A stretch of 64,000 bases of DNA from an uncultured virus (IMG/VR IMGVR_UViG_3300028840_008159) (lineage: Duplodnaviria > Heunggongvirae > Uroviricota > Caudoviricetes). Under the pieces are notes generated by a model, which did not search any database, was not told the origin of the DNA, and saw nothing but the letters and a program-made list of their open reading frames with translations. The stretch is from the IMG/VR virus record IMGVR_UViG_3300028840_008159. One strand, 5' to 3'. The translations under genes were made by a program, and so were the position numbers. This document shows positions 2,957 to 45,338 of this stretch, piece by piece. Every line of letters starts with the position of its first letter. The stretch's first letter is position 1.

Positions 2957-3823
2957 TCAGAACTTGCAGTTTCGGTCTACCCATCCACGGACGTCTCGAT
3001 TTCCGACCCTCTTGACGAGCCTCAGCATGACCTTGGTGGCCTTATCGATGGCTACGTTCAATGGCTCTCGGTTTGCCTCGCTGTAGGGTATCCCCACGTT
3101 CATGTGAAGCCCTCCGACGCAATCGTCGGGGACGTCGATGGCCGAGTAGCGGCATTGCCAGACGATGGGCATTACCGCTTGGATGGGGTCGTTGCATAGC
3201 GTCTGACAAACCTCGTCATGCCCGTGGAACGTGGATGGCAACGGGGGCCGGTTCCTCGACTCGGAGAACTCCCTGTAGTCGTCGGCGCCGTCGTCTCCAT
3301 GGACGAAGAAGGCGGCCGACTTGCCCTTGAGGTGGTTCCTGAGCAAGGAGTGATACTTGTCGGTCATCTCCATCTTCGAGGTGGCCTTGGAGTTCTTGTC
3401 GAGTCCAAACTTACCGGCCTGCTGAACGGTCAGGCTCAGGTTGGCGCAGACGAGGCGATCAAACAGGGCCTTGACCTGCGTCGGGACGCCGTGCCAATGG
3501 ACCGGGCAGAGGACCATGAAACCGTCGCATCTCTCGATCCTGCGATAGATGTCGAAGTCGTGCATGAAGTCCGGGCGCTCCTCGTCGCCCTTCTTGTAAC
3601 AGTCGCAGGGCCAATGACAGTGAAACCCGTCGGCCGTGGAGACGCAGCCCTTGCATGGCTGGATGATCGGCCGGTCCCTCCTGACCGAGAGGTCGCAGAC
3701 GTCCGTCTCGATGCCTTCCGGCAACGCCCGCAGGCATTCTCGCAGGATGCGGGCGGTCTTGGACGTCTGATCGGGACAGTTGCCCTTGTTGCGGGGGGAG
3801 CCCTGGAGGAACATGATCCTCAT
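2957..3823 (-). CDS. Flavodoxin-family / iron-sulfur flavoprotein-like protein with C-terminal WVDRNCKF tag
   Basis: MRIMFLQGSPR start coupled (ATGA) to the upstream stop; IQPCKGC..CHWPCDC cysteine cluster; PVHWHGVPTQVKALFDRL. Confidence 0.85.
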   Translation of the reverse strand: MRIMFLQGSPRNKGNCPDQTSKTARILRECLRALPEGIETDVCDLSVRRDRPIIQPCKGCVSTADGFHCHWPCDCYKKGDEERPDFMHDFDIYRRIERCDGFMVLCPVHWHGVPTQVKALFDRLVCANLSLTVQQAGKFGLDKNSKATSKMEMTDKYHSLLRNHLKGKSAAFFVHGDDGADDYREFSESRNRPPLPSTFHGHDEVCQTLCNDPIQAVMPIVWQCRYSAIDVPDDCVGGLHMNVGIPYSEANREPLNVAIDKATKVMLRLVKRVGNRDVRGWVDRNCKF

Positions 3824-4149
3824 GTCGAGGCCCACTTGCAGTTGCGTCTGACCCACGCCCTGAGGACGTCCGCGCCCTCCTCGGGCCAGTCCTCGACGTG
3901 TCCTTCCGACTGCCGCTCGGGAAGTTGCTCGACGGGGCCGTGGTACGGGTAGGGTATCCAGCCGATGATCTCGTTGCTGTCCACGAGGTCCTTCTTGCCC
4001 TTGGACGTCGTCACCTGGGCGATCCAGGAGCCGTCGGGGAACACCTTCAGGTCCTCGATCTCGACCCACCTGCCCATGCCCGGGACGGTTATCTTGTTCT
4101 CCCCGCGAGGGGGTATATTGGGCGATGTCCACGCGATCTTTGCGAGCAT
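3820..4149 (-). CDS. Hypothetical protein with C-terminal WVRRNCKWA tag
   Basis: GAGGAG RBS; ORF coupled to the downstream flavoprotein gene. Confidence 0.75.
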   Translation of the reverse strand: MLAKIAWTSPNIPPRGENKITVPGMGRWVEIEDLKVFPDGSWIAQVTTSKGKKDLVDSNEIIGWIPYPYHGPVEQLPERQSEGHVEDWPEEGADVLRAWVRRNCKWAST

Positions 4150-4169
4150 GACGTCTCCTCATGGACATG

Positions 4170-4194
4170 TTAAACGCCGTGGCCGTATGATCCT
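4170..4194 (-). promoter_or_regulatory. Class II motif AGGA-N16-TTTAA
   Basis: Same spacing as five other copies; 20 nt upstream of ATG 4149. Confidence 0.55.
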
Positions 4195-4211
4195 CTTAGG
4201 GGTAAAGAGAC

Positions 4212-4907
4212 ATGCGTGGACAACGGATATTGATCTGCCTGCCGGCCATCTCGAGGTCCATGGCCGGAACGATGGCGGTCTTCAGGAAGGCGCCTTTCGT
4301 GGAGGTCGGGAATTTCGAGTCGACGATCCGGTCCCTTGACTTCCCGTCGGAGATGGACGTGCGTCTGCCCGGGAAGGCGTGGGCCATCAACGTCCCCGGA
4401 TGGGACCTCAAGAAGAGGAGGTTGTCTGGGATCGGCGGCCCCGGCGGCTCGCCCCTTTTTCACCCTCCATCGGCCGCGACGAGGCTTTCCAGGATATGCG
4501 GGGTTTACGATGAGTGGCGCCCGTACCCGGCGCAGCCGCCGCTCAGCAACTACGCCCGCGAGATAGCGACGAGGATCGCCCGCAAGAGGGCCAAGGCGCT
4601 GCGTCTCGTGTCCTCCTCCCTCCCGTGGGACTTCATCCTGGCCTGCGACCACGCCCCCGCCAGCGTCGCCCACCTCGACAAGGGGGAGGCTTGCCGCGTC
4701 GCGTCCGTCATGATCGACTCGGCCTTGGAGGTGGTCGCCGCGTGGCCCGACGCGGCACTCGTGATCCTCGGGCCTTATGGGGTAGGAAACGAGGACGGAT
4801 TCGTCGTATCCAATCGAATGGAGCCGTCGGTTATCGGAAACTGGGAGCAAATAAGACGATATGCCCGTGGAGAATCCATCCGCCCGATTGGGCTTGAGCC
4901 TGCATGA
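4212..4907 (+). CDS. Hypothetical protein, possibly degenerate alkaline-phosphatase/phosphodiesterase superfamily
   Basis: WAINVPG and ALVILGPYG..GFVVSN resemble AlkP-superfamily segments but lack the SDHG metal ligands. Confidence 0.35.
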   Translation: MRGQRILICLPAISRSMAGTMAVFRKAPFVEVGNFESTIRSLDFPSEMDVRLPGKAWAINVPGWDLKKRRLSGIGGPGGSPLFHPPSAATRLSRICGVYDEWRPYPAQPPLSNYAREIATRIARKRAKALRLVSSSLPWDFILACDHAPASVAHLDKGEACRVASVMIDSALEVVAAWPDAALVILGPYGVGNEDGFVVSNRMEPSVIGNWEQIRRYARGESIRPIGLEPA

Positions 4908-5924: not shown

Positions 5925-6834
5925 ATGTCATTCTCCAAGCTTTCCCCCTTGTTTCGCCAGTCCTTGCGGGAAGTCATCGACAAGATGGCCTCGCAGGAGA
6001 AGGGGGCTTGCGGTTGCGCCTCCCCCTGCATGGGCGACGGCGACGAGAAACGCCGTTCCGTGGACGAGGTGTTGCAGCTCATCAACGACGTGAACTCGCG
6101 CCTCGTCTCGGACTGGCTGTACGCCCTCGACGACGCCTCCCGAGAGGAGGTCAAACGCCTGTTCCTGGAGCTCAGGAACCTGAGCGCGGCCGAGTTCGTC
6201 CTGCTGATGAAGAGCTCGGGAGCCTGTTGCCCATGGGAGTTCATCGGATCCATGTTCGCGACAGAGGATGAGGAGGCGAGTCCTCAGAAGGAAGAAATTG
6301 TGATCGTCGAGGAAACAACTGGTCCGGCGATCTAGGAGAAACAGGATGGACCCGCTAGGCAACGCAGTCCGAGACATGTTGAGGCGCCAACGAGACGACA
6401 TGGTGAGGACGGCATCCTCCCTCGCCGAGGAGTTGAAGTCAGAGGGCATGACGCCCGAGCAGGTCGAGGAGATGTTGTTCGCCAGCGGTTTCGATTCCGG
6501 CGTCGTCTCGGAGGCGATGGACTCGTTTCCCGAGAGAAAATAGCGGAGGCCGCCGATGAGATGGTACATTCGCAAGACGGCCTCCAGACCCCCCGCCTAC
6601 CTCCAGGAAAGATTGTCTGACCTGTCCCGCGTCACGAGGGCTTCCATGACCGAGCCGGGGCACGCTCGCGGGTTGCTCGAGGACGTCATCACGAAGCTCC
6701 GGAAGCATGGGGACGACGAGTACGCGGGACCGCTCGAGGAGGCGGTCAGGCGCGGCCTGGACAACCCCTCCACGATGAGGACGCTGGTCGAGGCCGTCAT
6801 GATGACCATGAAGAGGGACTCGGAGGATGATTGA
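5925..6834 (+). other. Three hypothetical CDSs (5925-6335, 6346-6543, 6556-6834) carrying K/R-x-A-S motifs
   Basis: Each has an RBS; DKMAS, VRTAS and MRWYIRKTAS near the N-termini. Confidence 0.7.
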
Positions 6835-7472: not shown

Positions 7473-10400
7473 ACAACATCAAGTCCATTCGTTCCTTCCT
7501 TCGCGGCCTCCTCGGCGACAACCCGATCAAGCTGTTCGACCGCCACATGGACGAGTTCGCCTGTTGCGTTAAGACGTGGGCGCTCTCCGACCTGAAGTCC
7601 AGCTCGGAGGACGTCAAGGAGCGTTTCACGAACGTCTCGTACGGCATCCTCAGCGAGGCCGTCAAGCTCTTCCTCTCCGAGAAGTACTCCAAGGAGGACG
7701 GCAGCCTGAGCGTCGAGATCACCGAGTCAGAGATATACGACGAGGGCCATCACCGCATCCCCGCCATCGTCGCCCTCCGCGAGAGGCAGGAGGAGATCAT
7801 CGAGTTCATGGTTCGGAACGCCATGAGGGACTTCGAGGCCGGGCGCAGGCTCGCCAAGGTCATCGTGGCCCGAGCCCGCAAGTTCGAGTCCGACAAGATG
7901 GACGGCGCTCGTCCTCCGGCGAGGAGCCGGATTCCGGCCGAGGCCATCGAGGTCGAGATCATGAGGCTCGAGAAGCGTCTCAGCGAGCTTACCCCCGAGG
8001 AGGGGCGTCGCTTGTCTGGGCTATACGAGGTGCTTGGCGCATGCGTTGGGAGCTTGTAAAGGCCGCGTGGGGGCTCGCCGTCGAGGCGTTCCCCGACAAG
8101 CGCGTCTACGTCGCCGCCCCGGCGAGGATCGCCCCGGCGGGCCGCATGAAGGTGATCGACCTGGCCGACGGCGAGAAGGCCGGCGAGATCGACTACAAGG
8201 TGGATCGTTCCGGGCGGATGGTCCTGAAGGCGGGCGACAAGTCGAGGGAGCTCTCCCTGCCGAGGCTCTCCAGTCATTCGTACCGAGTCAGGAAAGAGCC
8301 GCGCTCCCCCGACGAGATTCAGCACGGGATGGCCAAGGCGGCGTCCAGCGCGAGGAAGAGGTTCAAGCCGTACGAGAAGTGCAGGATCGTGGACCGCCGG
8401 TCCATGGAGTTCGGGGAGCTCGGCCAAGTCCTGTCGTCCGCCAGCCGCGAGGGGAGGAGGTTCTATCTCGTCTCCGTGGACGGCTCAGGAACCCCGATGT
8501 GGTTCGCGGAGGAGTCCCTCGCCCCCAACATGGTCGGGGCCGTTATCTACAGGCCCTAAGGAGCAATTCGTGCCCGTCATCCCCAAGATCAAGGTCAACC
8601 CCAGGAAGGCCATCCTGGCCGCCAAGCAACAAGCCCAGGCGAGGCTTAGGAGGCTGGCTGTACGGGAGGAGCCGGAGCGGTTATTCGAGGACATCATCAA
8701 GGACATGCCGTCCCCGAGGGCCGTCATCAACATGTCGGAGCACGATCTCAAGGCTTTCCTGTCCGGTGGCAAGACGGGACGCTCGATGCCGCCATGGCCC
8801 GAGGATCGTCTCGGGGCGTTCGAACGGGAGATCGGCGCGGAGCCCTGGCACGTGTCTCTTGACCAGTCGGGGGTGGGCGAGAGGACGCTAGGGGCTTATT
8901 CCCTTTCCCTGGCCTCGTTGCCGGAGGACGCGTTCTGCATGATCGGCGACGTCGGAAGGCTCTTCGACCCCGAACGCGATGATTACACGAGGAACATAGA
9001 GGAGGTCGTTTGCGCCGCTTCCGGGGCCGGCGTGGCCATGGCATACGCGATGGTCTCCGGGATGGCCACGGCGGACGCCGCCTCGTCGCCTTCCTCCGTC
9101 CTGTCGTTGGCTCGCGAGAATCCCGCTCGGACCAAATGCCGGGCTTTCCTGACGAAGCCCCCGCGCCCCGAGGACGTCTCCGTCATCGTCGCCTCGGACG
9201 AGGACGGCGCGACGAAGGCCAGGGCGTTGCTCGAGTCGATCGGGAAGGCGGTCCCCGTCGCGGTGTTCCCGGGGAGGCTTCCCGTTCGCGAGGTTGAGAG
9301 GGAGTCGGCCGGATCGCTCCCCGTCGTCGCGGAGTTGAGGTACTTCGAGCCCGGCGACCGCGTCAGGACGAAGTTGACGGCGTCGATCCCGTCACGAAAG
9401 GGCGTCATTTCGGACGCCGCCGCGAACAGGGTCGTCGTGGAATGGGACGACGCCGAAGAGAGGACCGCGATGGACCTCGTCGAGGCCATGGCGTCGCTAA
9501 TGTGGGAACCTAGGGAGGAGCCCCCTTCTCCGGTAGTATACTCGCTGCCGGGCATGGACGAGGAGACGTGCTCCGTCCTGGCGTCGGCGGGGGTAGATCC
9601 CGTCGACCTGTACGCCCTGGCCTCCCATCACGCCCCCTCCTCGCCGTACTCGGAGGGCTGGCAGGATTCCCTCATCGAGGCTTTGTCGTCGATGGGGGTC
9701 GACGCGGTGGTCGTCGATGGGCACGCCCTGAGGGACGGGAAGTTCGGGAAATCGAAGTGGATCGAGGGGCGCGTTGGCGGCAACCGGCTCGTCGTTGATC
9801 TCGGGCCGGGACGCCTTGAGATCAGGGCCGGGAATCCTTGGACTCACGTCGCGGGCTCCTCCTTCTCCGTATAATCGAGGGGAGGAGCTGACCAATGAAA
9901 TTGATGGAGTTTGCCCTACAGAACGCGGAGCTCATCCAAAAGCTCTTCTCGGACGAGAACGACGGCGAGATGGTCGTCTCGATCGATGACTTTTGCTTCA
10001 ATTCCAGCGACCTGGAGGTGGAGTGGGAGGAGACGGCCCTCAAGTTCTCGGTGGAGGTCGACCCGTTCAAGTTCGTGACGACCATGATGCCAGAGGAGAT
10101 GAAGGAGAACGTCGACAGCATCAAGTCGATCAGCGACCCCAACGTGCGACAGAAGATCGTCGAGTTCATGGAGACCGAGATCAAGGAAACGGTCGAGGGC
10201 GAGAAGGACATGGCCGTCGACAACCTGGAGGAAGCCAAGGGGGCGCTGAGGGAGGCGGAGGAGACGATGAACAACGTGCTGGACGCCATCTCCGACGTCA
10301 AGCATGACTGGGGGGTTCCATGAGCCTGTGGTCCTACGTCGGGATCGATCAATCCGAGAAGGCGGTCAAGGGAAAGGTTCACGCCGACGACGAGGAGTCG

Positions 10401-11532: not shown

Positions 11533-12594
11533 ATGGCTCGGATAAGAACCTACGCGACCCATTTCTGCGGAGTCGGGGGCGCTTGCGCTGGCCTCCACGC
11601 CGCGGGTTTGGAATGCAAGCTGGCCATAGACAACTGGGCCCCGGCCGTCGAGTGGCGGGAAAGGAACCTCGGCCACAAGGCCCTCCACATGGACATCGTC
11701 GACTACGAGCCGGATGATTCCCACGCGGCGGACTTGCTATGGACGTCGCCCCCCTGCCAGACTTTCTCCTCGGCCCGCGAGACGAACTACGACAAGGAGG
11801 ACCGCCGCAACTACCTTTACCTGAACTCGGTCATGTACGCGGAAGTCTTCAAGCCCCGCTTCGTTGTCATCGAGAACGTCCAGGGGCTACTCAACCACGA
11901 CTTCGGGGCGACCCTGGACGGCTTCAAGAAAGCCTTCGGACGACTCGGCTACAACTTCGAGTGGAACATCCTGAACGCGGTCAAGTTCGGTGTCCCCCAG
12001 AGCAGGCCGAGGCTGTTCATGGTTTGCTCTCGGGAAGGGGACCGAGGGCTCATCCCGGCCCATCCAAGGCTCGACAAGCAGCCCAGCTTCGGGGACATCA
12101 TGGAGCACCAGAAGGAGGAGCTGGGGTGGGGCGGATCGACCTACGGAACGGCCCTCCGCAAGAAGGACAGGACGGGCGTGACGTTCAAGATCGTCGAGTC
12201 GTCCGGAAAGGACGAGAGGGGAAGGCCCTTGGACATCATGCCGACGATTACGTGCGGGTTCAACGGCGGCCCGACCCGCAAGAAGACGGCCGTCCTGGAC
12301 CATACCAGGTCGAGACTGGCTTTCCTCCGCGACCCGTCCGTCCGCGAGGGGGCTCGCGCCCAGGGCTTTCCCGACGAGTGGGAATGGCCCGAGAACACGT
12401 CCGATGCGTGGACGCTGATCGGAAACGCAGTAGCCGTCCCCGTGGCGAAAGCCATCGGGAAGCACCTGATCGCCCTTTCCGAGGGCAGGAAGCCACGCGC
12501 CAAGATTCGACACCACCCCGATGAGGTCAGGTCGGCCTGCGCGGTGGCCGAGGGCAACATGAGCGCCCCGGATCTTGGGTTCGAGGAGGAATGA
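11533..12594 (+). CDS. DNA (cytosine-5)-methyltransferase
   Basis: FCGVGG, SPPCQTFS, IENV, PQSRPR, REGARAQGFP, IGNAVAV. Confidence 0.92.
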   Translation: MARIRTYATHFCGVGGACAGLHAAGLECKLAIDNWAPAVEWRERNLGHKALHMDIVDYEPDDSHAADLLWTSPPCQTFSSARETNYDKEDRRNYLYLNSVMYAEVFKPRFVVIENVQGLLNHDFGATLDGFKKAFGRLGYNFEWNILNAVKFGVPQSRPRLFMVCSREGDRGLIPAHPRLDKQPSFGDIMEHQKEELGWGGSTYGTALRKKDRTGVTFKIVESSGKDERGRPLDIMPTITCGFNGGPTRKKTAVLDHTRSRLAFLRDPSVREGARAQGFPDEWEWPENTSDAWTLIGNAVAVPVAKAIGKHLIALSEGRKPRAKIRHHPDEVRSACAVAEGNMSAPDLGFEEE

Positions 12595-13193
12595 GCATGC
12601 ACGCAGTCCCGTTCGTCATCGAGAAGAGTTCCGGGGGCGATCATTGCTACGACATCTACAGCAGGCTCCTGAACGACCGCATCATATTCCTGGGCGACGA
12701 GATCGATTCCGACGTGGCCACCTCCATCGTGGCCCAGATGCTCCTGCTCCATCAACAGGACCCCGGCGCCGACGTCCATCTCTACGTCATGTCCACCGGC
12801 GGAGAGGCGTGCCCGGCGCTCGCGATCTACGACACGATGCAGAACATCTCGTGCCCCGTCGCGACCTACTGCGTCGGGATGGCCATGAGCGCCGCCGCGC
12901 TCCTGGTCTGCGGGGGGACGAAGGGGAAGCGGTTCGCGCTCCCGAGCTCGAGGATCATGATTCACCAGCCCTGGGGCGTCATCGAGGGGCAGGCGAGCGA
13001 CATCGAGATCGAGACGACGGAGATGAAGAGGACCAAGTCGATCTACTACGAGCACCTCGCCCGCCATACGGGGAAGTCCGTCTCGAGGATCACGAAGGAC
13101 TGCGACAGGAACCGGTACATGTCGGCTCAGGAGGCCACGAAGTACGGGCTCGTTGACCGCATCCTGACGGGCTTGCCGAAACCGAAGAAATGA
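12591..13193 (+). CDS. clpP: ClpP protease subunit (third triad residue appears to be Asn)
   Basis: YDIYSRLLNDRIIFLG, GMAMSAAA (Ser), IMIHQP (His), DCDRNRYMSAQEA..YGLVD. Confidence 0.95.
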   Translation: MSMHAVPFVIEKSSGGDHCYDIYSRLLNDRIIFLGDEIDSDVATSIVAQMLLLHQQDPGADVHLYVMSTGGEACPALAIYDTMQNISCPVATYCVGMAMSAAALLVCGGTKGKRFALPSSRIMIHQPWGVIEGQASDIEIETTEMKRTKSIYYEHLARHTGKSVSRITKDCDRNRYMSAQEATKYGLVDRILTGLPKPKK

Positions 13194-13753
13194 GGGATTA
13201 CCACGTAAACAAGGAGGCTTGGCACGAGTCCTGGCTGAGGAACTACGTCGGGATGAGCCGCCAGTACCTCGCCCGCGAGTACGGCGACGGGGAGACCGCC
13301 GCGTTGATCGTCAGGCTAACGGACGGCGACGTCCGGGGCGAGGCGATCTACCACGTCAAGGGGGAGGTCATGATGCCCAGGGGGGGCGGCTTCCTGTGCG
13401 CCCTAATGGCCCCCTACACGCTCGCCCCCGACCTCATCAACGCCCCGGACCGGATCGTGGGGTCGGAGATGAACGACTTCCCCCCGGAGACGTTCTTCCT
13501 GGAGGCGTTGCTCGAGGCCGCCTACCCCTACAAGATCGACGGGAGCGGGTTCAAGGCTCACGCCGAGCTCATGATAGAGTACGAGAACCTGTCGCAGATG
13601 ACCGAGGAGGGCGCTCGGCACATGGCGTTCTTCGGGTACGGGTTCCTGTTGATGAACAAGGTAAGGCAATTGATCGACCCGCTCGCCAGCCCCGAGCGGA
13701 TCGCTTCCCGCTGCTGCGAGTCGTACCTTTGCGTGATGGAGAGGGACAAATGA
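13190..13753 (+). CDS. Hypothetical protein
   Basis: ATGA-coupled on both sides. Confidence 0.7.
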   Translation: MRDYHVNKEAWHESWLRNYVGMSRQYLAREYGDGETAALIVRLTDGDVRGEAIYHVKGEVMMPRGGGFLCALMAPYTLAPDLINAPDRIVGSEMNDFPPETFFLEALLEAAYPYKIDGSGFKAHAELMIEYENLSQMTEEGARHMAFFGYGFLLMNKVRQLIDPLASPERIASRCCESYLCVMERDK

Positions 13754-15105
13754 AGACCAAGAAGATGCCACCTTTGGAATATTACGAGGTCTCGGCGGCC
13801 GGGATGCATCCGTTCTTCCTGCGCTCGACGGAGTACCTGATCTCGACGTTGGTCATGGAGCACGGGGCGAAGATACATTACTACACGTTCATGATGGGCA
13901 ACACGTTCGACGAGGAGAGCATCGACGAGGTCGTCGAGCTCATGGACGGCAAGCAGGTGAAAGTCATCGAGAACTCCTTTCCGCTCGCGGGCATGAACTC
14001 GGCGAGGGATCGGGTATCGGGGAGCAATCTGACCATAACGCAAGGGGCGAAGGACGACTTGTGGGAGTTCAGGGGGCTGACCAAGCATCCCGTTTATCTC
14101 GGGGTCGTCAACTGCTTCAACATGGACTATAGCCGCCGTCCTTCGGTAACCTCGTGCCCGTTCGTGGCGAGCTTCGACATGGAGGAGGCGGTCATGCTGA
14201 TGACCTGCCTGCGGGAGGCCGTCCGGTCCTACAACAGGAGGACGCAGCGCGTTGTTGACGCGAACGGCATCCAGATCGAGAGCTTCCGTAAGTTCGAGTG
14301 GGACCAGATATTCCTCAAGGGGGACATGGTCAAGGACATCCGGTCCGAGGTGGACGGCTTCTTCGAGGCGCGTACCATGTACGAGAAGCATGGGCTCGAC
14401 TGGCGGAGGGGGTTGCTCCTGGTCGGTCCGCCCGGAAACGGGAAGACGGCCATTTGCCGGGCCATCGCGACGACCTCCAAGGTTCCCGTCGTTTATTGCC
14501 TCCTGTCGGACGGCGATCCATATAACATGTTGCAGGCGGCGCACCACACGATAGTACGCAACGCGCCATGCGTCGCCATCTTCGAGGACGCCGACAGCTT
14601 CGGGGCCGACGATGGGGTACGCTCGAGCATGCTGAACCTTTTCGACGGCCTGATATCCAGCAACGGCGTCCTGACGATAGCTTCCACGAACTGCCCCGAC
14701 AAGCTGGACGCGGCGATGACCGGGCGCCCGAGCCGCTTCGACAGCCTGTATCACGTGCCCAATCCGGGGGCGCGTGAGCGCAAGTCCATCATCTCCCACC
14801 GGCTCGGAAAGCAGGCGCGGAGGCTCTCAAAGGCCATCGACGAGGTCGTGTCAAACAGCAACGGCCTCTCGGCGGCGGCGGTACAGGAGATAGCGGTCTA
14901 CGGGATGTTGAGCGCCCTCAAGCAACAAAAGGCGGTCAAGCCCCAACACCTGAAGGAAGCCCTGGAAAAGGTCAAGAAGCACATGCAATCATCGAGGGCC
15001 GGGATGGAGAAGCTCTCCAGTGGGTCAGTCGGGTTCTCCACGTCCCCAGAGGGCCATCCTGGCGTCCCGATGGCCCCGAGCCAAGGCGTAGCCCCTCCTT
15101 TCTGA
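13750..15105 (+). CDS. AAA+ ATPase (classical AAA clade)
   Basis: GPPGNGKT Walker A, AIFED Walker B, STN..LDAAMTGRPSRFD second region of homology. Confidence 0.9.
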   Translation: MKTKKMPPLEYYEVSAAGMHPFFLRSTEYLISTLVMEHGAKIHYYTFMMGNTFDEESIDEVVELMDGKQVKVIENSFPLAGMNSARDRVSGSNLTITQGAKDDLWEFRGLTKHPVYLGVVNCFNMDYSRRPSVTSCPFVASFDMEEAVMLMTCLREAVRSYNRRTQRVVDANGIQIESFRKFEWDQIFLKGDMVKDIRSEVDGFFEARTMYEKHGLDWRRGLLLVGPPGNGKTAICRAIATTSKVPVVYCLLSDGDPYNMLQAAHHTIVRNAPCVAIFEDADSFGADDGVRSSMLNLFDGLISSNGVLTIASTNCPDKLDAAMTGRPSRFDSLYHVPNPGARERKSIISHRLGKQARRLSKAIDEVVSNSNGLSAAAVQEIAVYGMLSALKQQKAVKPQHLKEALEKVKKHMQSSRAGMEKLSSGSVGFSTSPEGHPGVPMAPSQGVAPPF

Positions 15106-15191
15106 TTTTGCCCGTTTTGTGATTGACAACTACGCCTACCCCACCGTAACCTAGTGGTAGTGAATGGTCCATGAACAGGAGGAAAGTCGCG

Positions 15192-16666
15192 ATGTCGACG
15201 AAGCAGAAGTTGCCCGCCACGCTTGAGCCAAAACCCCTACAAGAAAAGAAGGAGGAAGCCACGCCCAAAAGCCCTACCGAAAGCGCGACGACCCAGACGA
15301 CGTCGCCACCCGCGCCCTCTAGTGATCGCGTGGCGAAGGCGCTCGCAAAAAAGAAGAAGGACAAGGACCAACCCAAGCCCAGCAAGTTCCTTGACCTTGG
15401 GGCCGGCTACTCGATCTCCGCGAACGAGGGCTCGGGCTATTACCTCCTGCTCAAGGCCATGAAGCGCCTGTGTCATTTCGAGGAGGTCGTTGGGATTTTG
15501 GAATCCATCGATCCATCGGACAAGGCGCAGGCCGAGAAGATCGTCGGCAGGAAGGACGATCCCGGTGCCGGCCTGGGCATGGTCTGGCGCGACGAGCTCG
15601 AGTCCGAGACTCGTTCCGACGGCGACTGGCAGTCCCATGCGAGCGCCAAGATCAAGTCGCTCAAGATGCTGGCCAAGGCGTCCAGCAAGACTGCCGAGGC
15701 GACCCTTTCCAACAAGGCCAGGGTCAAGGGCAACAAGTGGCTCGGGAACGTCCGCGAGATGATCTCCACCTGTTGCTCGTCCTACCCGGAGAGCAAGAAC
15801 AGGAACACGCGAAAGTTCCAGGAGGCGGCCGTCGTGTTTAGGCAGTTCCCGCTCAGGCCGAAGCGCAGCGACAAGGTCTACGTGATGATGTTCCCCAAGA
15901 AGTACATCAAGACCATCCGCTCCTGCATCGAGACCGTCCACGGGATCAAGGAGCCACGGAAATGAAGGAGGCCGACAAGTCCTTCGACCTTGGAGGCGGA
16001 TTTAGACTGAAGTTCTCCGGGGGCGACGTGAACGAGAAAGACGTCGTCGAGGAGGCCAAGAAGGTTCGGGACGAGGTTGACAAGGCATACGCCAACCCGA
16101 ACGTCCAAATCCTGTCGCGAGTCCGGTACATGTTCGAGCACAAGGGCTTGCCCTTCGTATGGCTCAAGAACCCCTCCAGCTTCACTGAGGAGTCGACTCC
16201 GGAGTTTCTCGAGGCGATTTGGCAATCCGCCATCAAGTTCGAGGGGCGAGGGCTCCCCATCGGGTCCCTCAAAATCAGCAAGATAGAGCATCTGGAGGTT
16301 TCGGGGACCCGCGTCATCCTTCTCCGGCCCCTTTTCCCTCCCATGATCCCGTTCTGCTACAGGATCGCCATGGTGGACGCTGACAAGCCGCTTTACCTGA
16401 CGCAAGAGCGAACGTCGGAGTCCATGAGGAAGGAAACGAAGGCCGATTCGGCCTTGTGCTCGTGGGAGCCCGTCGGGGATGATATTCGCGGCGTCGCTGA
16501 CATGCGACACGGTAATTACTTGCATTTCATGTCCAGGAGACGGTCCGCGATGATGGAGGCCATAGAGGGCGTTCTGGAGGGGCGCCTGAAGGCGGCTTCC
16601 CTCCTCTCGAAGGTCACATCGAGTCCGGGATATGGACCGAATCCCAGCTCGGCATCGCGTTCTTGA
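15192..16666 (+). other. Two hypothetical CDSs (about 15192-15965 and 15962-16666)
   Basis: Coupled ORFs; both contain FLDLGAGY/SFDLGGGF-like segments. Confidence 0.65.
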
Positions 16667-17048: not shown

Positions 17049-17073
17049 AGGGTTAAGATGAGCGAATTCCGAA
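17049..17073 (+). promoter_or_regulatory. Class II motif AGGG-N16-CCGAA
   Basis: 22 nt upstream of the CCA-enzyme ATG. Confidence 0.65.
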
Positions 17074-17095: not shown

Positions 17096-18856
17096 ATGGA
17101 GCCTTTAGGGCGTTGGTTCGCCGGCAATTGCAAGTTCGCGTCATCGGAACCGGTCATCGGCCCTCCCGTCAAGGTCGACGCCGTTTCTCAACGCATCATA
17201 GACACCGTCCTGGCCGTCGCGCAGGAGTTCGGATTGTCGACGACATTCCGCGTCGCGGGCGGATGGGTCAGGGACAACCTGCTGGGAGTAACCAGCGACG
17301 ATCTCGACTTCGCCCTGGACGACATGACCGGCGCCCGGTTCGCGTCGTACATGGCCGACTACTGCGACCGGCATCCGAACTGCGGCATCTCCGAGGCTCA
17401 TGAGATCAAGGCCAACCCCGACAAGAGCAAGCACCTGGCCACGGTGACGGTGGTCATCCATGGGTTGAAGGTGGACTTCGTCAACCTGCGCGTCGAGACC
17501 TACGGCGAGAGCCGAATCCCGACCATGGAGATGGGGACGCCAGACAGCGACGCCAGGCGCCGCGACCTGACCATCAACGCCCTGTTCTATAACGTCCATA
17601 CGGGTCAGGTGGAGGACTTCCTGGGGGGTCAGGGGTTGAAGGACCTCGGTCTCGATACCGGTACCATCGTCATCAGGACGCCTCGTGACCCCGGGAAGGG
17701 GCAACTCGAGTCGACCGTCAGGATATTCAGGGACGACCCGCTGCGCATGCTCCGGGCGCTACGATTCTACTCGCGATACCCGAACGCTGTCATGGACCCT
17801 TCCATCGTTGACGCCCTCTCGATGCCGGAGGTTCAGGAGCGGTTCACCTACGTGAGGGGAAAGAAGTCCGAGAAGCCGGGGGCGGAGGACGAGCCCGACA
17901 AGGGCGTCGCCCCGAGTCGGTCAGGACCCGAGCTCATCAAGCTCTTCCAGGGGGCCAAGCCCGCGGAGGCGCTGAGGCTGATGTACGGCTCGGGCTTCGA
18001 CAAGAAGGTTTTCGACGTGCCGGGCTACAACGCGCTCATGGACTTGACGATGGAGCAACGGAACCCCTATCACGCGTATACGCTGCTCGAGCATACGATG
18101 AAGGTCGTCGAGAACATGAACAAGGTGGCCAACGAGGCCGGCCTCCCCAAGGATACGCGTGGCTTGCTGAACTTCGCCGCGTTGTTCCACGACCTCGGCA
18201 AGGCCAAGCCCGGCGTCGGCAAGCCCAAGGAGAAGGACCCCGCGCATTACACGTACGAGAATCACGAGCAGTTCTCCGCGGACATAGCCGACGAGATCCT
18301 CAGGCATGTCGACGTGGGTTCAGATGACCGTCAGTTCGTCGAGATGATGGTGGCCATGCACATGCGCCCGCATCGTCATCGCGTTGGCCCCGAGCAGCCC
18401 GCCTGGACGCCCAAGGCCATGGGTCGATTCGTCAGGGAGACGCGGCCCCACGGCAAGGAGGACCTCGCTAAGGACTGGTGGAAATACGCCATGATGCTGT
18501 CCATGGCCGACGTGATGAGCAAGGGGACGGGCGACATCGAGGCCGAGACCGCCGAGCGCTGGGAGCATATCAAGGGGTTCGAGGAGTTCCTGAAGCCTGC
18601 CCCCCAGAAGGCTTCCCTCATGAAGCCGCTCCTGAACGGGCATGACCTCATAAAGATGTTCCCGGATATCAAGCCGACGAGGATAATCGATGGCAAGAAT
18701 TTCATTAAGTACATACAGGACAAGATGTTGGACGGTCAGGCCACGGGCGATATAACGCCAGATAACGTTCGAGAGAAGGTGATGGAGATCGCCGCCGAGA
18801 TGCCCGATTACCGGAGCACGGAGGCGTGGGTTGATAGTAATTGCAAGTTAGGTTGA
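17096..18856 (+). CDS. Class II CCA-adding tRNA nucleotidyltransferase / poly(A) polymerase family with HD domain; tagged at both termini
   Basis: AGGWVRD..DLD, DFVNLR, DARRRDLTINALFYN, DDPLRMLRALRF, HT..LFHDLGK; N-terminal WFAGNCKFA and C-terminal WVDSNCKLG. Confidence 0.92.
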   Translation: MEPLGRWFAGNCKFASSEPVIGPPVKVDAVSQRIIDTVLAVAQEFGLSTTFRVAGGWVRDNLLGVTSDDLDFALDDMTGARFASYMADYCDRHPNCGISEAHEIKANPDKSKHLATVTVVIHGLKVDFVNLRVETYGESRIPTMEMGTPDSDARRRDLTINALFYNVHTGQVEDFLGGQGLKDLGLDTGTIVIRTPRDPGKGQLESTVRIFRDDPLRMLRALRFYSRYPNAVMDPSIVDALSMPEVQERFTYVRGKKSEKPGAEDEPDKGVAPSRSGPELIKLFQGAKPAEALRLMYGSGFDKKVFDVPGYNALMDLTMEQRNPYHAYTLLEHTMKVVENMNKVANEAGLPKDTRGLLNFAALFHDLGKAKPGVGKPKEKDPAHYTYENHEQFSADIADEILRHVDVGSDDRQFVEMMVAMHMRPHRHRVGPEQPAWTPKAMGRFVRETRPHGKEDLAKDWWKYAMMLSMADVMSKGTGDIEAETAERWEHIKGFEEFLKPAPQKASLMKPLLNGHDLIKMFPDIKPTRIIDGKNFIKYIQDKMLDGQATGDITPDNVREKVMEIAAEMPDYRSTEAWVDSNCKLG

Positions 18857-18896: not shown

Positions 18897-19661
18897 ATGG
18901 ACTGGTACGATAAGGCGAGGGTCATCAAGGGCAAGCGCGGGAAACGCAGCGCGGCCCCATTGCTGCGGCGCCTCATTACGGCTGGCGGCATCTCTCGCAT
19001 CTTTCGGCACCTCAAGGAGGGACCGTTCGCCATCGTTTCGGCCGCCAGGCCGGAGAAGACTCCCGAGCAAAACGCGCGTGATTTCGCGGAGCTCAAACGG
19101 CGCATCGTCGAGGACGGCCTTGGCTTCTATCCGGCGGATGGGTTCTTCGAGGGCTTGCCGGAGGACAGCATTTTCATCCCCGGCGCGTCCTTGGAGAAGG
19201 CCATCGAGTACGGGGGCATGTTCGATCCGCCCCAGTATTCCGTCATGTGGGGTGACGAGGGCCGATACGGTTTCTATGGCATCGAGGACGGTCGTTACCA
19301 GTTCGGCGGCGACGTGGGAGAGGATTTCACCATCCTGAAGGACGAGGAGGTTCGGAAGCTGATCGAGGAGAAGTCCGAGATCGGGTTCACGGAGATCGGT
19401 CGCGGGGGCCAACGGCCCTGGACGACGGACCCGTCCATCAAGAAATGGCGCGAGAAGGAGAAGCGCGAGGAACTCGAGGACGAGGCCGAGGAAAGGAAGG
19501 TCGCCTGCGTGATCTCCGACCCGCGACGCCACATGGCGATGGGGAACTACCAGGGCGTCTACAAGTTCACGGGCGTGGACGGAAAATACGTCAACTTCGA
19601 CGACAAGCGCCTCAAGTCCGACTCGATCGAGGCGTTGCTCGCGTTCATCCCGATGGGGTGA
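18897..19661 (+). CDS. Probable T3 SAMase-like S-adenosylmethionine lyase-fold protein
   Basis: FAIVSAAR..QN..GFFE..EDS..QYSV..GFTEI..RPW matches, in order, the T3 gp0.3 motifs as recalled; GGAGG RBS. Confidence 0.6.
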   Translation: MDWYDKARVIKGKRGKRSAAPLLRRLITAGGISRIFRHLKEGPFAIVSAARPEKTPEQNARDFAELKRRIVEDGLGFYPADGFFEGLPEDSIFIPGASLEKAIEYGGMFDPPQYSVMWGDEGRYGFYGIEDGRYQFGGDVGEDFTILKDEEVRKLIEEKSEIGFTEIGRGGQRPWTTDPSIKKWREKEKREELEDEAEERKVACVISDPRRHMAMGNYQGVYKFTGVDGKYVNFDDKRLKSDSIEALLAFIPMG

Positions 19662-20766: not shown

Positions 20767-20785
20767 TCGTGTCAAGCGACTCGAG

Positions 20786-27460: not shown

Positions 27461-27477
27461 GGGTTTCATCATACGGC

Positions 27478-29530: not shown

Positions 29531-30515
29531 CGATCACGTTCGCCCTCGACGCGAACGCCTTCCCGAACCCCAGGAAGTCCATGACCGCGTGCGCCTCGGA
29601 CTCGTCGCCGAACCTGCTCAGGGTTTGCAGGAGCTCTCGCGGGCTCTGGGAATCGCGTATCGTCCAATCCGGCTCCTCTTCACGGCTTTCCTTGTTGAGC
29701 TTCGTCTTCTGGAACACGTTCTCCTTGGACGAGAAGTCGTTGTCCCGAGAGCTGTACCGGAACTTGTAGATCGGCATCTCCTTGCCGGGCATGTATATGT
29801 CCAGTACTCGGTCGATGCGCTGGGCCCAGCCCTTCTTGGGGTTGCCTTCCGCGTCGAAGACGACCTTCCCGGACTTGTCCTTCCTCTTGGTGGGGAACCA
29901 CCTGACGAGCTTCTGCGCCTTGGCCGTGTACCTTCCGAGCTGGAAGTCCTCGACCTCGTCCTCCTTCTGGTGGCCTCCCTCCGGCTTGAACTTCTTCTTG
30001 GGGGCCGGGGGCTCGGGTTTCTCGGGCTCGGCCGCCATCCTGGCGGCGCTCGACTTGGCCTTGAACTCGTTGTAGACCATCAGCTCGAGTTCTTCGTCGC
30101 CCTTCGCCTGCCCGTATTGGTTCAGGAACTCGTCGACTAGCGTCTCCGGCAGGTCGATGAGGGGCATCTTGCCGTCCATGACCTGAACCCACCCGGGGAC
30201 GGCCTTCGAGGGGCGAGTAATCAGCCCTGACGGCTTCTCTTCGGGGGCGCCGAGCTCCTGCGCCTTGGCCCGGGCGAGGTTGGCCTTCTCCGTCTCTCCG
30301 GCCTCCTCCCAATGCTTGACCGAATCTTGCAGGGCTTCGATGAGGGCGCGTCCCTCGGTGTAAGCCCCGACGCTCAGCGCTTCTTTGGCCCCGTCCGACA
30401 GGAGATCCTCGACATCGGGCGCGAAGGCGAGGGCCACGAAGGCGCCCTTTTTGGTGGGGAAAATGCGACCCGGGAGGCCGTGTACCATCCAGCCGCTTGA
30501 CGTCCTGGTAAGCAT
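29514..30515 (-). CDS. Hypothetical protein ending FASRANVIVKVAL
   Basis: AGGAG RBS; class II motif upstream. Confidence 0.75.
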   Translation of the reverse strand: MLTRTSSGWMVHGLPGRIFPTKKGAFVALAFAPDVEDLLSDGAKEALSVGAYTEGRALIEALQDSVKHWEEAGETEKANLARAKAQELGAPEEKPSGLITRPSKAVPGWVQVMDGKMPLIDLPETLVDEFLNQYGQAKGDEELELMVYNEFKAKSSAARMAAEPEKPEPPAPKKKFKPEGGHQKEDEVEDFQLGRYTAKAQKLVRWFPTKRKDKSGKVVFDAEGNPKKGWAQRIDRVLDIYMPGKEMPIYKFRYSSRDNDFSSKENVFQKTKLNKESREEEPDWTIRDSQSPRELLQTLSRFGDESEAHAVMDFLGFGKAFASRANVIVKVAL

Positions 30516-32373: not shown

Positions 32374-32398
32374 AGGATCGAGGACCCGCGCCTCCTAA
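32374..32398 (+). promoter_or_regulatory. Class II motif AGGA-N16-CCTAA
   Basis: 22 nt upstream of ATG 32421. Confidence 0.65.
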
Positions 32399-32420: not shown

Positions 32421-33737
32421 ATGCCCTATAGACCATTCTCACGTCCACGACGTTCAAGAAGGAGAAGTCCGGCGGCCTCTGGGCCTGACCGATATTACCA
32501 CGGAAAGATCATCCGTGCCCAGTCCGGGGCCAGCGGGGCTCGCCGTTGGTACCTTTACGTCCTCCAGCCAGATTACTATTGGGTCGATGGCAAGGTCATC
32601 CGCGAGGCGCCTACCATCAAGTGGTTCACCAACGTCCCGATGCCCAACTCAAGGGGGGGCATGGTCAAGGAAGGCGACGAGATATTCATCAAGGGCAAGT
32701 TCCGGGAGCACAGCTCCATCCGGCCGTCCGGCGACCTGATCGGGAACGTCTTGGCCCTGAAGGAGGAAGAGTTCAAGAAGGTGACCGGCTACCCGGCGGG
32801 TCGGCCGGAGGTCAAGCCCGAGCCGGAGAAGCCCAAGCCGCAGCCGTGCTCCAAGCGCGTCGACGCCCTCATGGAGAGTCTTCGCGAAGCCAAGAAGAAG
32901 ATGGACGATATCCGTGAATCGGGGCTGAAGGAGCTGGACAAGCAAATCCCCGGATCCGCCAAGGACCAGGACTTGTTCAGGCGGGTGCAGGAGGCGAATT
33001 CGTTCGACGAGGCGTACCTGGAAACGCCAGACGGACGACAAAGCATCCAGCGCGTCCTCCCCGAGGTCAAGACGGAACACGACGTCATCGTCTCCCCGGA
33101 GGTCTTCCTGGACATCGCCAAGAAGCTCAGGGAGCACGCCATGACGGTCCTGAACCTCGCGGCCGAGGACCCCGAAAACGCGTCCGAGTGGGGCGACGTG
33201 GGCGACATCAGCGTTACCATCGAGCCGTTCCCGGGGGAACAGGAGACGATCACGCTAAAGCCCATGTTCGAGCCCGACGACCTGATGAAGGGCCCGGATT
33301 ACGTCGAGAACGAGTTCATCGTCCCCCTTCAGGCCGAGATGGAGAGGGCCGAGGGGGCTAGGGCGCAGGGAATCCCGGAATTCGACCATCAACTCCCGTT
33401 CGTTCCCCAGTCCGTCAAGCGGGGACGCGGAGGACAGGAGATAAGAGAGGACGTCAAAAGGGTTTACGAGGACTCCAAGCAGAAGTTCGAGTCCACGAAG
33501 GAAGCGATCAATAAAATACTGGAAGATTTGGGCATTTCCGAGGCCCAAGAGTCGTATAGAAAGGCCAAGCAGTACCTCGACCTGGCCAGATGGGATTGTC
33601 CCGGCGACAAGGACCGCATCGACAAGTTCAAGCGCGACCTGGAGTTGGGGAAGGCGGCCGCGTGGCTTGACAGGTCATGCCGGTTCGCTGGTGAGTATGG
33701 CGTGGTGGTAAAGGTGGCCGGTTTCCCGACCAAGTGA
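32421..33737 (+). CDS. Hypothetical protein (OB-fold-like N-terminus, acidic helical body) with C-terminal WLDRSCRFA and VVVKVA
   Basis: GGAGG RBS; VKEGDEIFIKGKF segment; terminal tag. Confidence 0.75.
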   Translation: MPYRPFSRPRRSRRRSPAASGPDRYYHGKIIRAQSGASGARRWYLYVLQPDYYWVDGKVIREAPTIKWFTNVPMPNSRGGMVKEGDEIFIKGKFREHSSIRPSGDLIGNVLALKEEEFKKVTGYPAGRPEVKPEPEKPKPQPCSKRVDALMESLREAKKKMDDIRESGLKELDKQIPGSAKDQDLFRRVQEANSFDEAYLETPDGRQSIQRVLPEVKTEHDVIVSPEVFLDIAKKLREHAMTVLNLAAEDPENASEWGDVGDISVTIEPFPGEQETITLKPMFEPDDLMKGPDYVENEFIVPLQAEMERAEGARAQGIPEFDHQLPFVPQSVKRGRGGQEIREDVKRVYEDSKQKFESTKEAINKILEDLGISEAQESYRKAKQYLDLARWDCPGDKDRIDKFKRDLELGKAAAWLDRSCRFAGEYGVVVKVAGFPTK

Positions 33738-43259: not shown

Positions 43260-43279
43260 TAGGCCACCTTTCGTTTGGG

Positions 43280-43339
43280 ATGATAGTCTTAAATTCGACC
43301 AACGTCAAGCGTTGACGCGTGGCTTCCTTATGGTAGATT
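43280..43339. promoter_or_regulatory. Divergent sigma70-like promoter pair
   Basis: Minus TTGACG-N17-TATCAT (43280-43308) and plus TTGACG-N16-TAGATT (43312-43339). Confidence 0.75.
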
Positions 43340-43356
43340 CGATCATGGAGGGTCGC

Positions 43357-44063
43357 ATGAGCTACGTGGACGCGAAGGACATCAGCCCCGGGGACTTGTT
43401 CCTCCAGATCCCGACGGAGTTATGGATGCCGGAAAGAGGAAACACGTTCGCCCCCATGAAGTCCGAGGAGCTGGAGCTGTTGGACAACGACAAGAAGGGA
43501 TATTACCTGGCCGTCCACTACGACACGAACGAGATGGATGGCGTAGCTAACGTGGGTGGAATCCTCGCCGTCTCCATGCGGGGACGTCCTTGCCTGCTCT
43601 CCAAGCTGAGGGCCGTCATCGCGTCCTCCGTGGAATTCGAGGGCATCGGGTCATGCCCGATCGGGATCATGTCGCCCGGCCAGTTCTTCATGTTCGGAGA
43701 CCAGGTCATCATGCGAGGAGCGAAGGTCAACGGGTGCGTCTTCAATTACTCCATGAGCGGTTTCGTCATATGGAACCTGCCGGCGCAGACGAGCTGCGAG
43801 ACGCTGAGGCTGAAGGCCCGGTGGGAAAGGAACGGTGGATGATGTCCGGTCCAGGTTATTTCGGGGCGACGGGAGAATTTCCTGACGGCGAGCTCGGGCC
43901 AGGTGACGAGGGCGAGCTGTCGTTCGGCATCACGGCCGACCAGGGCAACGTCATCCTGATTTTCGGCAAGCAGGTGGAGTGGCTCGGGATGCCCCCGGAC
44001 GTCGCGAGGGCCCTTGCGGAGAAGCTGATTGAGAAGGCCGACGAGATCGACTCTAGGCCCTAG
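43357..44063 (+). other. Two CDSs: 43357-43842 (PGD-family paralog) and 43839-44063
   Basis: ISPGDLF..YLAV..SPGQFF; GATGEFPDG..DEGEL. Confidence 0.7.
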
Positions 44064-45288
44064 AGGCGAACTTGCAGTTCCTCGTCACCCACGCGGCGGC
44101 CTCGAAAAGCGGGTACTTCCTGTACTTGGCGGGAACCTCCGGTATCTTGACGTGGGGCTTGAAGCATGCCTGGGCGAAGTCCTCCCAGAACTTGTCCATC
44201 AGGACGTCGAACGGGTCCGCCGTCTGGCCCTTCGCGCCTTGCTCCTTCTTGATGCCGGTCCAGACGGCCGCCTGGTATTGGCGCGGCTCGACGCCCTTCT
44301 CGTAGGCTAGGTCACGGATCGCGTCCGCGAGAATCTCGTACATTTCGGGCTTGCTGAGGATCGTGGTAGACGTCGAACCGAGTGCCCTGGCCATCCACAC
44401 GTCAAGCGTTACGGCGTCCGCGTCGCCCCATAACGCCCTCGCGAAGTTGTCCACTTTGGAGCCGCTCAGCTTGACCCCGGACATGGCCCTACCGATGTTC
44501 CGGACGTGGGAGCGCATGAAGTACTTGGACATCCTGGCCTTGAAATCGGGGTCGTCCCCCAGGGAGACCTCGCCGCTGGCGCCCGTGACCCTCTTGAACT
44601 CGTTGACGTACTTGTTGAACGCCTGGATGGCCTTCGAAAGGTTGCGCTCGACGGGCGTCCTCGGTGAGGTCGCCGAGAGGAGCTTCGCGAACGTGACCGC
44701 GTTCTCCTCGCCGAAGTACTTCGTCAGCAGCCCGCGCACGTTGTCGTACCACCCAAGGCCCGACACGCCTTCCTCGAAATAACGGTCGAGCGTCTCCTTG
44801 ATGGACGCCGCCGAGGCCGGCTTCTGGGCGATCGCCATGTCGCACGCCTTCCGGATGTCGTCCAGCGCCTCGAGGGCGGTCTTTGGCTTCTTCTTCGCCG
44901 CGGTGACCGGCTCGAGATCGGGCTCGTATCCACCGGGCTCCGTCCCGATCTCCTCCGCGAGACCCTCGGGGAGCGCCTGCTCCAGGTCGATCTTCTCCTG
45001 GTCCTCGGCGGCGGTGAACAGGTCGGGCTCCTGCATGGCGCGTTGCATGGGCGCGACCATGGCCATGGCCATGGCCCTGATCTGCCTTATCAGGGGGGCG
45101 ACCTTCCGGAGGCCGGCGTCCTTCATGCCCTTGAGCGTCTCGCCCATGGCCTGGAGTTCGGGCCAACCCTGGACGTCATGGACCGGGATCGCCTTCGCGA
45201 GGTTCCTGATGCCCTGTAGGATTCTCCCCACGTTCGTGGATCGGTTGTTGGCGTTGACGAGCCTGAGGGCTCTCTGGAGGGCGAGCAT
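44053..45288 (-). CDS. Protein with a possible HhH-glycosylase-like phage domain and C-terminal WVTRNCKFA tag
   Basis: WY..LSATSPR..N..GSKVDNF..VTLDVWMAR..QAAVW. Confidence 0.6.
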   Translation of the reverse strand: MLALQRALRLVNANNRSTNVGRILQGIRNLAKAIPVHDVQGWPELQAMGETLKGMKDAGLRKVAPLIRQIRAMAMAMVAPMQRAMQEPDLFTAAEDQEKIDLEQALPEGLAEEIGTEPGGYEPDLEPVTAAKKKPKTALEALDDIRKACDMAIAQKPASAASIKETLDRYFEEGVSGLGWYDNVRGLLTKYFGEENAVTFAKLLSATSPRTPVERNLSKAIQAFNKYVNEFKRVTGASGEVSLGDDPDFKARMSKYFMRSHVRNIGRAMSGVKLSGSKVDNFARALWGDADAVTLDVWMARALGSTSTTILSKPEMYEILADAIRDLAYEKGVEPRQYQAAVWTGIKKEQGAKGQTADPFDVLMDKFWEDFAQACFKPHVKIPEVPAKYRKYPLFEAAAWVTRNCKFASRA

Positions 45289-45313
45289 TTGGTTACCTTT
45301 CCTCTGGGTCCTA

Positions 45314-45338
45314 TTCGGGGACCGGGGCTTTAGTTCCT
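45314..45338 (-). promoter_or_regulatory. Class II motif AGGA-N16-CCGAA
   Basis: 25 nt upstream of ATG 45288. Confidence 0.7.

Follow-up and report, generated by a model that had tools for sequence, protein, structure and literature searches.

A portable nine-residue peptide on unrelated proteins of a phage-G-like huge phage: a candidate signal for head loading and proteolytic cleavage

When a 64,000-nucleotide stretch of DNA from an uncultured virus of the Caudoviricetes (IMG/VR record IMGVR_UViG_3300028840_008159; hereafter the window) was searched in six frames for the peptide pattern W-x3-[NS]-C-[KR]-[FWL], exactly six copies were observed, all of them inside long open reading frames (ORFs). 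The copies of this short peptide, here called the tag, are carried by five unrelated proteins, and each lies within 25 residues of a protein end. That the tag on these unrelated proteins is real and portable is well supported; its mechanism is probable and unproven. We consider it reasonably probable that the tag is an address helix for head loading joined to a protease cut site, that it acts like the capsid-targeting sequence (CTS) of phage T4, and that its cargo is delivered at infection. The observations behind this reading are the recurrence of the tag, its peptide-level conservation, its portability, its presence at the joints of modular proteins, the exchange of versions between phages, the enrichment of K-x-A in head scaffolds and an alanine asymmetry between protein ends.

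Two of the carriers are encoded by a single unit on the minus strand. The first gene of this unit (3820..4149) encodes a 109-aa protein of unknown function, also present in the protein collection, with a C-terminal copy at 3829..3855. It is followed by a flavodoxin-fold flavoprotein (FMN_red; Pfam PF03358, E 1.7e-12; 288 aa; 2957..3823), for which the gene model was corrected to a start at 3823, where its start codon and the stop codon of the 109-aa gene overlap (ATGA). The C-terminal copy of the flavoprotein (2960..2983) ends at Phe, without Ala, and is followed by the stop codon. The third carrier, a CCA-adding/poly(A)-polymerase-family nucleotidyltransferase with an HD domain (PF01743 and PF01966; 586 aa; 17096..18856, plus strand), is tagged at both ends. 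Its N-terminal copy (17114..17140) begins at residue 7 and its K-F-A is followed by Ser, and the C-terminal copy (18827..18853) has Gly in place of Ala. On the same strand, a 438-aa protein of unknown function (32421..33737), for which no Pfam, PHROG or ESM Atlas assignment was obtained, carries its copy (33663..33689) 24 residues from the end, and a further K-V-A follows. The fifth carrier is a DUF7178 protein (PF23802; 411 aa; 44053..45288, minus strand) with a C-terminal copy at 44065..44091. The five copies near C-termini lie 8, 11, 9, 24 and 12 residues from the end.

The chance expectation for the pattern in the 118 called genes (19,161 aa) is 0.010 copies, against the six found. When all four-residue gapped motifs in the window proteome were ranked, W-x3-N-C-K came first (log P -20.5), and the best motif of each of 12 shuffled proteomes was weaker (log P -14.0 to -17.8). 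All six copies would fall this close to a terminus (25 residues or fewer) with a probability of about 8e-6. The check on shuffled proteomes and terminal enrichment that the first-pass annotation had called for came out in favour of the tag, and the six-frame search bore out the six terminal copies which that annotation had listed. Pairwise DNA identity among the six copies is only 12-20 of 27 bases, and synonymous codons are freely used in 47 distinct tag copies from related contigs; the constraint therefore acts on the peptide, as had been proposed from the differing codons.

The tag also lies outside the folds of its carriers. In the AlphaFold model of the CCA enzyme (mean pLDDT 88.8) the two tags form short low-confidence helices outside the enzyme core (residues 2-11 and 575-582, pLDDT ~55-62), and the two plasmid-borne flavodoxin-family homologues that were aligned terminate before the tag position. 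The earlier suggestion that the tag stands apart from the catalytic domains is upheld by the appended helices of the former and the shorter homologues of the latter, and the cellular flavodoxin-family homologues were found to lack the tag. The flavoprotein has no sequence relative in the PDB. A helix-hairpin-helix DNA glycosylase-like domain is probably carried by the DUF7178 protein; phage matches of this protein are annotated as N-glycosylase, and Foldseek with its model returned weak OGG1/AGOG rows (E 0.4-1) and no match at E<=0.001.

Homologues of the carriers were found by whole-protein search, i.e. they were chosen regardless of the tag. Among 58 short CCA homologues, the tag is present at both ends in 7, at the N-terminus only in 5, at the C-terminus only in 15 and at neither end in 31. 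The 11 DUF7178 proteins include three with both ends tagged, six with the C-terminus only and two without the tag. None of the 62 long-form phage CCA homologues is tagged; these proteins (P0033-P0130) are at least 720 aa long and have N- and C-terminal extensions, which may be another way to localise the enzyme. When a tree of the CCA core domain was drawn with FastTree for 75 of 120 rows (every row shorter than 720 aa and each fourth of the long ones), a single 44-row branch (support 86) contained all 30 tagged rows, and within this branch the position of the tag changes. Taken with the models, these comparisons support a tag that is portable, conserved at the peptide level and placed outside folds.

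A scan of metagenomes with the tag pattern gave at least 121 loci, and in 78 of the 120 examined the tag lies in a frame of at least 75 codons. Among loci of at least 2.5 kb, 19 of 34 in-frame loci match proteins of two related huge phages, compared with 5 of 25 short-frame loci. In 185,579 cellular genomes the pattern was matched at 19 loci, compared with about 35 expected by uniform-base arithmetic, and is not enriched. Two of these 19 loci are near-duplicate phage-like contigs in an archaeal bin. The two contigs (C1 and C2 of G003; L146-L157) are near-identical, 106-108 kb long, 55-61% GC and carry tagged genes, and the other sampled contigs of the archaeal metagenome-assembled genome are 33-36% GC. 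Two scans of IMG/VR (one locus and five loci) gave no genuine tagged gene, the frames being short or non-coding or the tag not in frame. Neither the CCA enzyme nor the flavoprotein gave a match when used singly as the query of a locus search, and none of the 13 loci from a DUF7178 alignment search is tagged. No description of the tag or of K-x-A was found in the literature, which was searched mostly outside subscription papers, and no such tag is mentioned in the accessible parts of PMC7824862, PMC13282480, PMC8570332 and PMC12484599, including part of an annotation table.

The window lineage appears to be related to Bacillus phage G. Four of the five tagged proteins are recorded on a contig of 546,851 bases, which therefore belongs to a huge phage; one locus (L019) is identical to window positions 34066-54091, and the CCA alignment leads to huge phages in IMG/VR. 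One of these relatives, G005 (488 kb, with direct terminal repeats), has 7 genes in common with the window. In a tagged locus (L028), matches to 12 G005 proteins were found, and most of these follow the gene order of the G005 structural block, including the tail tube. A Volactin-family actin-fold gene also lies within the structural block (L028:12955-14064; G005 L257:6002-7036). The head module of phage G (JN638751) comprises gp14 (portal), gp19 (protease), gp26 and gp27, and a homologous capsid, portal and protease domain are found in G005. Its capsid protein is 54% identical to gp27, its portal is 33% identical to gp14, and a long protein encoded upstream of the decoration and capsid genes has an N-terminal domain 48% identical to gp19 over 112 aa. 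This domain matches the PHROG head maturation protease. The accessible part of PMC12484599 names gp19 as head maturation protease and is inconsistent on its detection in particles. The capsid, portal and protease of these three types are present in G005, to which the window is linked through the 7 common genes. Since head genes of the tag lineage itself lie outside the window and were not recovered, its membership is judged from genes that are shared and syntenic.

In 120 homologues of the protease-scaffold protein, K-x-A was the most enriched spaced pair, with 4490 occurrences against 1828±39 in shuffles (ratio 2.46). The position before the Lys is rich in Ile, Leu and Val, the residue after the Ala is mostly Ser, Tyr, Gln or Phe, and the sites are kept within otherwise variable scaffold linkers. 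Motifs ending in Glu, as in T4 or SPN3US, are near background in the same proteins (ratio 1.06 for [SAG]-x-E and 1.21 for [LI]-x-E). The excess follows the head genes of G005: 25 K-x-A compared with 9.8 expected in the scaffold part and 54 with 32 in the 18 head-module genes. Neither the 557 other genes (571 and 539) nor the proteins for capsid and decoration (1 and 1.8) show a clear excess. It recurs in phage G gp19 (8 compared with 2.5), with an excess also in gp7, gp21 and gp14, and in gp94 of mycobacteriophage Rizal (19 compared with 8.3). K-x-A is the putative recognition site of the prohead protease of this group. The tag end, [KR]-F-A, is an instance of K-x-A, so that the tag ends in a candidate protease motif, and through this motif a link between the tag and head maturation is indirectly supported. 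Compared with gp27, the major capsid protein of Rizal (L378:28678-29679), a cluster C phage, is longer at its N-terminus by about 35 residues, and R-F-A, in which many tags end, occurs in this extra part. The Rizal portal has no sequence relative in the PDB, and the Rizal capsid has only phage G gp27.

The Ala of the tag is treated differently at the two ends. In ten doubly tagged proteins Ala9 is kept at 10 of 10 N-ends versus 2 of 10 C-ends, and among all copies found by homology Ala is present at 15 of 17 N-ends versus 16 of 31 C-ends (Fisher p 0.013). C-terminal copies without Ala retain Trp, Asn and Cys. This asymmetry is expected if the Ala belongs to a cut site that is needed only where a downstream part must be released and the Trp helix serves as the address. 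A separate [KR]-x-A is present within the first 12 residues of 6 of 18 CCA enzymes tagged only at the C-terminus; this is suggestive and fits the cut-site idea in part.

The claim that the tag marks protein termini holds for the six window copies; in relatives about half of the copies are internal. A profile built from 44 tag segments was searched against 1.84 billion protein representatives and matched 56 proteins with 104 copies, of which 40 are N-terminal, 51 internal and 13 C-terminal, and by pattern count up to four copies occur in one protein of the relatives. When the 56 proteins were cut at their tags, 98 segments of at least 45 aa were obtained, which fall into 71 families. The four tag-delimited segments of P0251 are met again in other places, either as complete tagged proteins or arranged differently. 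Known families among the segments are few (GNAT, Pol-beta nucleotidyltransferase, ParB-like, FtsK-like and sigma region 4), and in L011 an ART-PolyVal ADP-ribosyltransferase precedes an internal tag. The shuffled multi-domain architecture is seen in the relatives P0251-P0254, P0271 and L011, whereas the five window proteins are mostly single enzymes. No usable ESM Atlas match was obtained for P0257. The residue after [KR]-F-A is most often Gln (50 of the 104 copies). We also considered the PF23626 cysteine-cradle domain, a family listed in the database as nematode matrix proteins of the Caenorhabditis elegans apical extracellular matrix (aECM); 12-20 of 54 positions match, and it was rejected as a short chance resemblance.

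Other versions of the peptide are found in sister phages. Five huge phages obtained by the CCA search, including G005 and G008, gave no match to the DNA pattern for W-x4-C-[KR]-[FL]-A; in G005 and G008, several genes begin with W-Y-x(n)-K-x-[AS]-[QS] leaders. The two versions replace each other on orthologous proteins. A kinase-like protein carries the Cys tag at its N-terminus in L061, and in G005 it carries a W-Y tag at its C-terminus; both L058 and its orthologue G005 L252:11947 continue with S-V-T-F directly after their respective K-x-A. P0287 and P0276 pair with W-Y-led proteins of G008, four distant CCA homologues begin with W-Y/F, and in L321 and L325 the W-Y version opens CCA-like genes that follow the capsid gene at a distance of 1-3 kb. 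The sister version is also found in the window, where a 92-aa protein (6556..6834, plus strand) starts with W-Y-x2-K-T-A-S; the gene at the equivalent position in G005 and G008 begins W-Y-K-x-[AS]-Q, an equivalence that is positional, through the conserved next gene. In the first 45 kb of phage G (L281, 1-45000), a basic leader [KR]-R-L-x-K-x-[AS] is found on at least five small genes, gp13, gp20, gp38, gp53 and gp56, and looser basic leaders on gp10, gp17 and gp57. Further N-terminal leaders in the window are W-Y-x-K-A behind the CCA gene (18897-19661, plus), W-x3-K-A-A (8041-8559, plus) and K-I-A (3820-4149, minus), which may be degenerate versions of the tag.

On the reading we prefer, the peptide would be a two-part signal of a phage-G-like huge phage. 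The first part, W-[VIL]-x-x-N-C-[KR]-F, would form a short amphipathic helix, active wherever it is exposed (at the start, at the end or between domains), and would dock late-made proteins into the assembling prohead core. The second part, [KR]-F-A followed mostly by Gln or Ser, would be a K-x-A-type site for the prohead protease. Once the head is assembled, N-terminal leaders would be removed by the protease and polyproteins separated into modules, and C-terminal copies, needing the address only, would lose their Ala. The freed enzymes, namely the CCA enzyme, the flavoprotein and the glycosylase-like protein here, with GNAT, ADP-ribosyltransferase and nucleotidyltransferase modules in relatives, would be delivered at infection. 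Late expression, packaging, cleavage with its exact bond, and injection are steps that we infer. The first-pass annotation had likened the tag to the T4 CTS, which the prohead protease removes, and had proposed packaging into the virion or processing by the maturation protease; unlike the T4 CTS, a C-terminal copy would survive a cut after Ala.

Several points weigh against this reading. Searches for the capsid and protease of the tag lineage itself came up empty, the tag occurs in none of 80 capsid loci, and G003 gave no capsid or protease match; because its own head genes were not recovered, the K-x-A evidence had to be taken over from its relatives. None of the 120 scaffold homologues contains the full tag; these homologues are mutually related, so that their counts are no independent trials. 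A mild K-x-A excess (39 compared with 28.6) is also seen in ten replication and metabolism proteins of G005. No cleavage specificity of the phage-G-type protease was found in the literature searched. There is no recognised structural protein among the tagged proteins, and to our knowledge a CCA enzyme and a flavoprotein would be atypical as ejected proteins. The ten doubly tagged proteins form three related groups and are not independent samples, and one of the 17 N-end rows is a false pattern match. The profile search favours multi-copy proteins and takes in its own training proteins, and two of its matches, P0279 and P0303, resemble repeats rather than genes.

The rival that survives best is a docking or membrane-association helix which gathers late proteins at an intracellular site or partner (a factory, the membrane or a chaperone); the proteins would act in the infected cell and would not be borne in the virion. 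The predicted helix, with its hydrophobic face and basic positions 3, 4 and 7, would suit such a role, as would a peptide that works at either end, a C-terminal copy that is not removed and a cargo that includes housekeeping-type enzymes. However, it leaves unexplained that the tag ends in the K-x-A of the scaffold, that N-terminal copies retain the Ala which C-terminal ones lose, and that copies stand at module joints, and we regard it as unlikely.

We give a lower probability still to the nine-mer being only an extended protease site or a degron with no address role, through which either the prohead protease or the phage ClpP/AAA+ pair would activate proteins or limit their lifetime. ClpP and an AAA+ ATPase are encoded in the window and in tagged locus L064, and internal copies keep the Ala, which is present in 99 of the 104 profile-match copies, a count from a profile that itself selects for Ala. 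However, C-terminal copies keep the Trp, Asn and Cys, lose the Ala and often end the protein, where there is nothing to cut; the K-x-A sites of the scaffold have no Trp helix; and no ClpP match was obtained in the called genes of G005 or in the part of G008 examined, both of which use the sister version. In the window the order ClpP, a 187-aa gene, AAA+ ATPase and a further gene (12597-15965) is the one kept in L064.

It is very improbable, in our view, that the conserved Cys is the functional residue (for a disulphide, a metal or lipid attachment) and the rest of the peptide its context for a modifying enzyme. Cys is present in all 104 profile-match copies, where it was selected by the profile. 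It is replaced by Thr in two C-terminal copies found by homology (P0018 and P0027), orthologues with the sister version have no Cys, and the Ile/Leu/Val-rich position before the scaffold Lys fits a small hydrophobic role. The earlier alternative that Trp/Cys is a modification or docking site is weakened by these substitutions as far as modification is concerned. The possibility that the tag is a repeat or mobile micro-element at the DNA level, or matches by chance, and has no function in the protein was rejected and has almost no probability left: 42 of 120 metagenome pattern matches lie in short frames and are probably mostly chance, but all six window copies are in coding frame and conserved in orthologues, and the low DNA identity, the free synonymous codons and the 0.01 copies expected already contradict it.

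In phage T4, the CTS is found on IPI-III and Alt and is processed by gp21, according to the accessible parts of PMC9958956 and PMC5694885. Like the tag, it is a short peptide on unrelated proteins; for the tag, a role as prohead-core address is proposed, its end matches the inferred rule of the head protease, and an ADP-ribosyltransferase is among the tagged proteins in the relative L011. There is no sequence likeness, and the CTS is an N-terminal leader of about 10 residues whereas the tag is also C-terminal and internal; the T4 head is of the gp23/gp21/gp22 type, whereas the heads of the tag relatives have the phage-G-type capsid, portal and protease. The tag cannot be placed among T4 CTS peptides, since it also occurs away from the N-terminus and the head is of another type than that of T4. 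In SPN3US and phiKZ, the prohead protease cuts propeptides at A-X-E, and multiple protease motifs in scaffolds and propeptides are described for SPN3US (PMC10052503, accessible part). The likeness lies in a three-residue spaced motif repeated in propeptides and protease, with a small hydrophobic residue before and Ser after; unlike there, the motif here is K-x-A and comes from enrichment only, the SPN3US propeptides as far as described are mostly long, and no shared address peptide is named in that part of the paper. Phage polyvalent proteins, as presented in the accessible part of PMC5512222, are multi-domain proteins with shuffled effector modules for which packaging and injection are predicted. 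Tagged proteins likewise include ART-PolyVal and GNAT domains; as far as that account goes, polyvalent proteins owe their processing to zincin-like peptidases of their own or their delivery to fusion with MuF or portal, whereas here the same nine-residue tag stands at each joint. No MuF or portal family was found among the 56 profile matches, nor in a further scanned subset. The tagged genes of L028 lie in the structural block, whereas those of the window are scattered. Encapsulins load unrelated enzymes into an HK97-fold shell by short portable N- or C-terminal peptides. Unlike the tag, these peptides have a different sequence and serve cellular compartments with no protease step; here the shell would be a tailed-phage head and internal copies occur, and no encapsulin family was found among 101 window ORFs. 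In phage G itself, inspection of N-termini and K-x-A sites in the first 45 kb revealed no Trp/Cys tag, and no tag or cleavage rule is described for it in the literature covered.

The first-pass annotation had placed all tagged genes directly behind a promoter-like AGGA-N16-CCNAA motif. The strict motif was confirmed for two of the four tagged units, those of the 32421 gene (32374..32398, plus strand) and the 44053 gene (45314..45338, minus strand). The site before the CCA gene (17049..17073, plus strand) has one mismatch, and the site upstream of the 3820-4149/flavoprotein unit (4170..4194, minus strand) is a relaxed match. A relaxed AGGA-N16 pattern, defined after the fact, precedes all four units at -45 to -50 and is found before 8 of 118 genes. 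The motif precedes 2 of 3 tagged genes in an independent contig and exactly precedes the capsid gene of G005. However, of 72 capsid genes only 8 have it upstream (background 3.4%), as do 3 of 38 decoration genes, and it therefore lends little weight to a late promoter or to late timing. A second short motif, a Val/Ile run followed by [KR]-[VI]-A, is present at the start of gene 24605 and early in 25036 (window 24605-25740, plus strand), and at the ends of 29514 (29514-30515, minus strand) and 32421 (32421-33737). The 24605 and 29514 genes have the strict AGGA-N16-CCNAA upstream and no Trp tag. Four C5-cytosine DNA methyltransferase genes are also present in the 64 kb (840-1952, 11533-12594, 19663-20775 and 26216-27472).

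The finding bears on how jumbo phages outside the T4 group select the proteins carried in their heads. We tentatively suggest, as a wider reading that we hold to be possible and somewhat less than probable, that phage-G-like huge phages share a tag-and-cut cargo code, in which a position-independent helix in a lineage-specific version is joined to K-x-A and about nine codons would make any gene or module head cargo. The versions, equally tentative as part of that joint reading, would be W-x3-N-C-K-F-A here, W-Y-x(n)-K-x-A in the sister phages and [KR]-R-L-x-K-x-A in phage G. If so, tRNA-repair and redox enzymes would arrive ready-made in the infected cell and polyproteins would be cut apart in the head. 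With a label readable from sequence, one could then name the proteins that uncultured huge phages probably inject, most of them of unknown family, and K-x-A would be the first cleavage rule for phage-G-type prohead proteases. Both phage G and the cluster C mycobacteriophages are available in culture and have the same K-x-A excess, so virions that already exist can serve to check the idea. As a simple tool, a tag active at either terminus would also allow proteins to be loaded into capsids of very large size.

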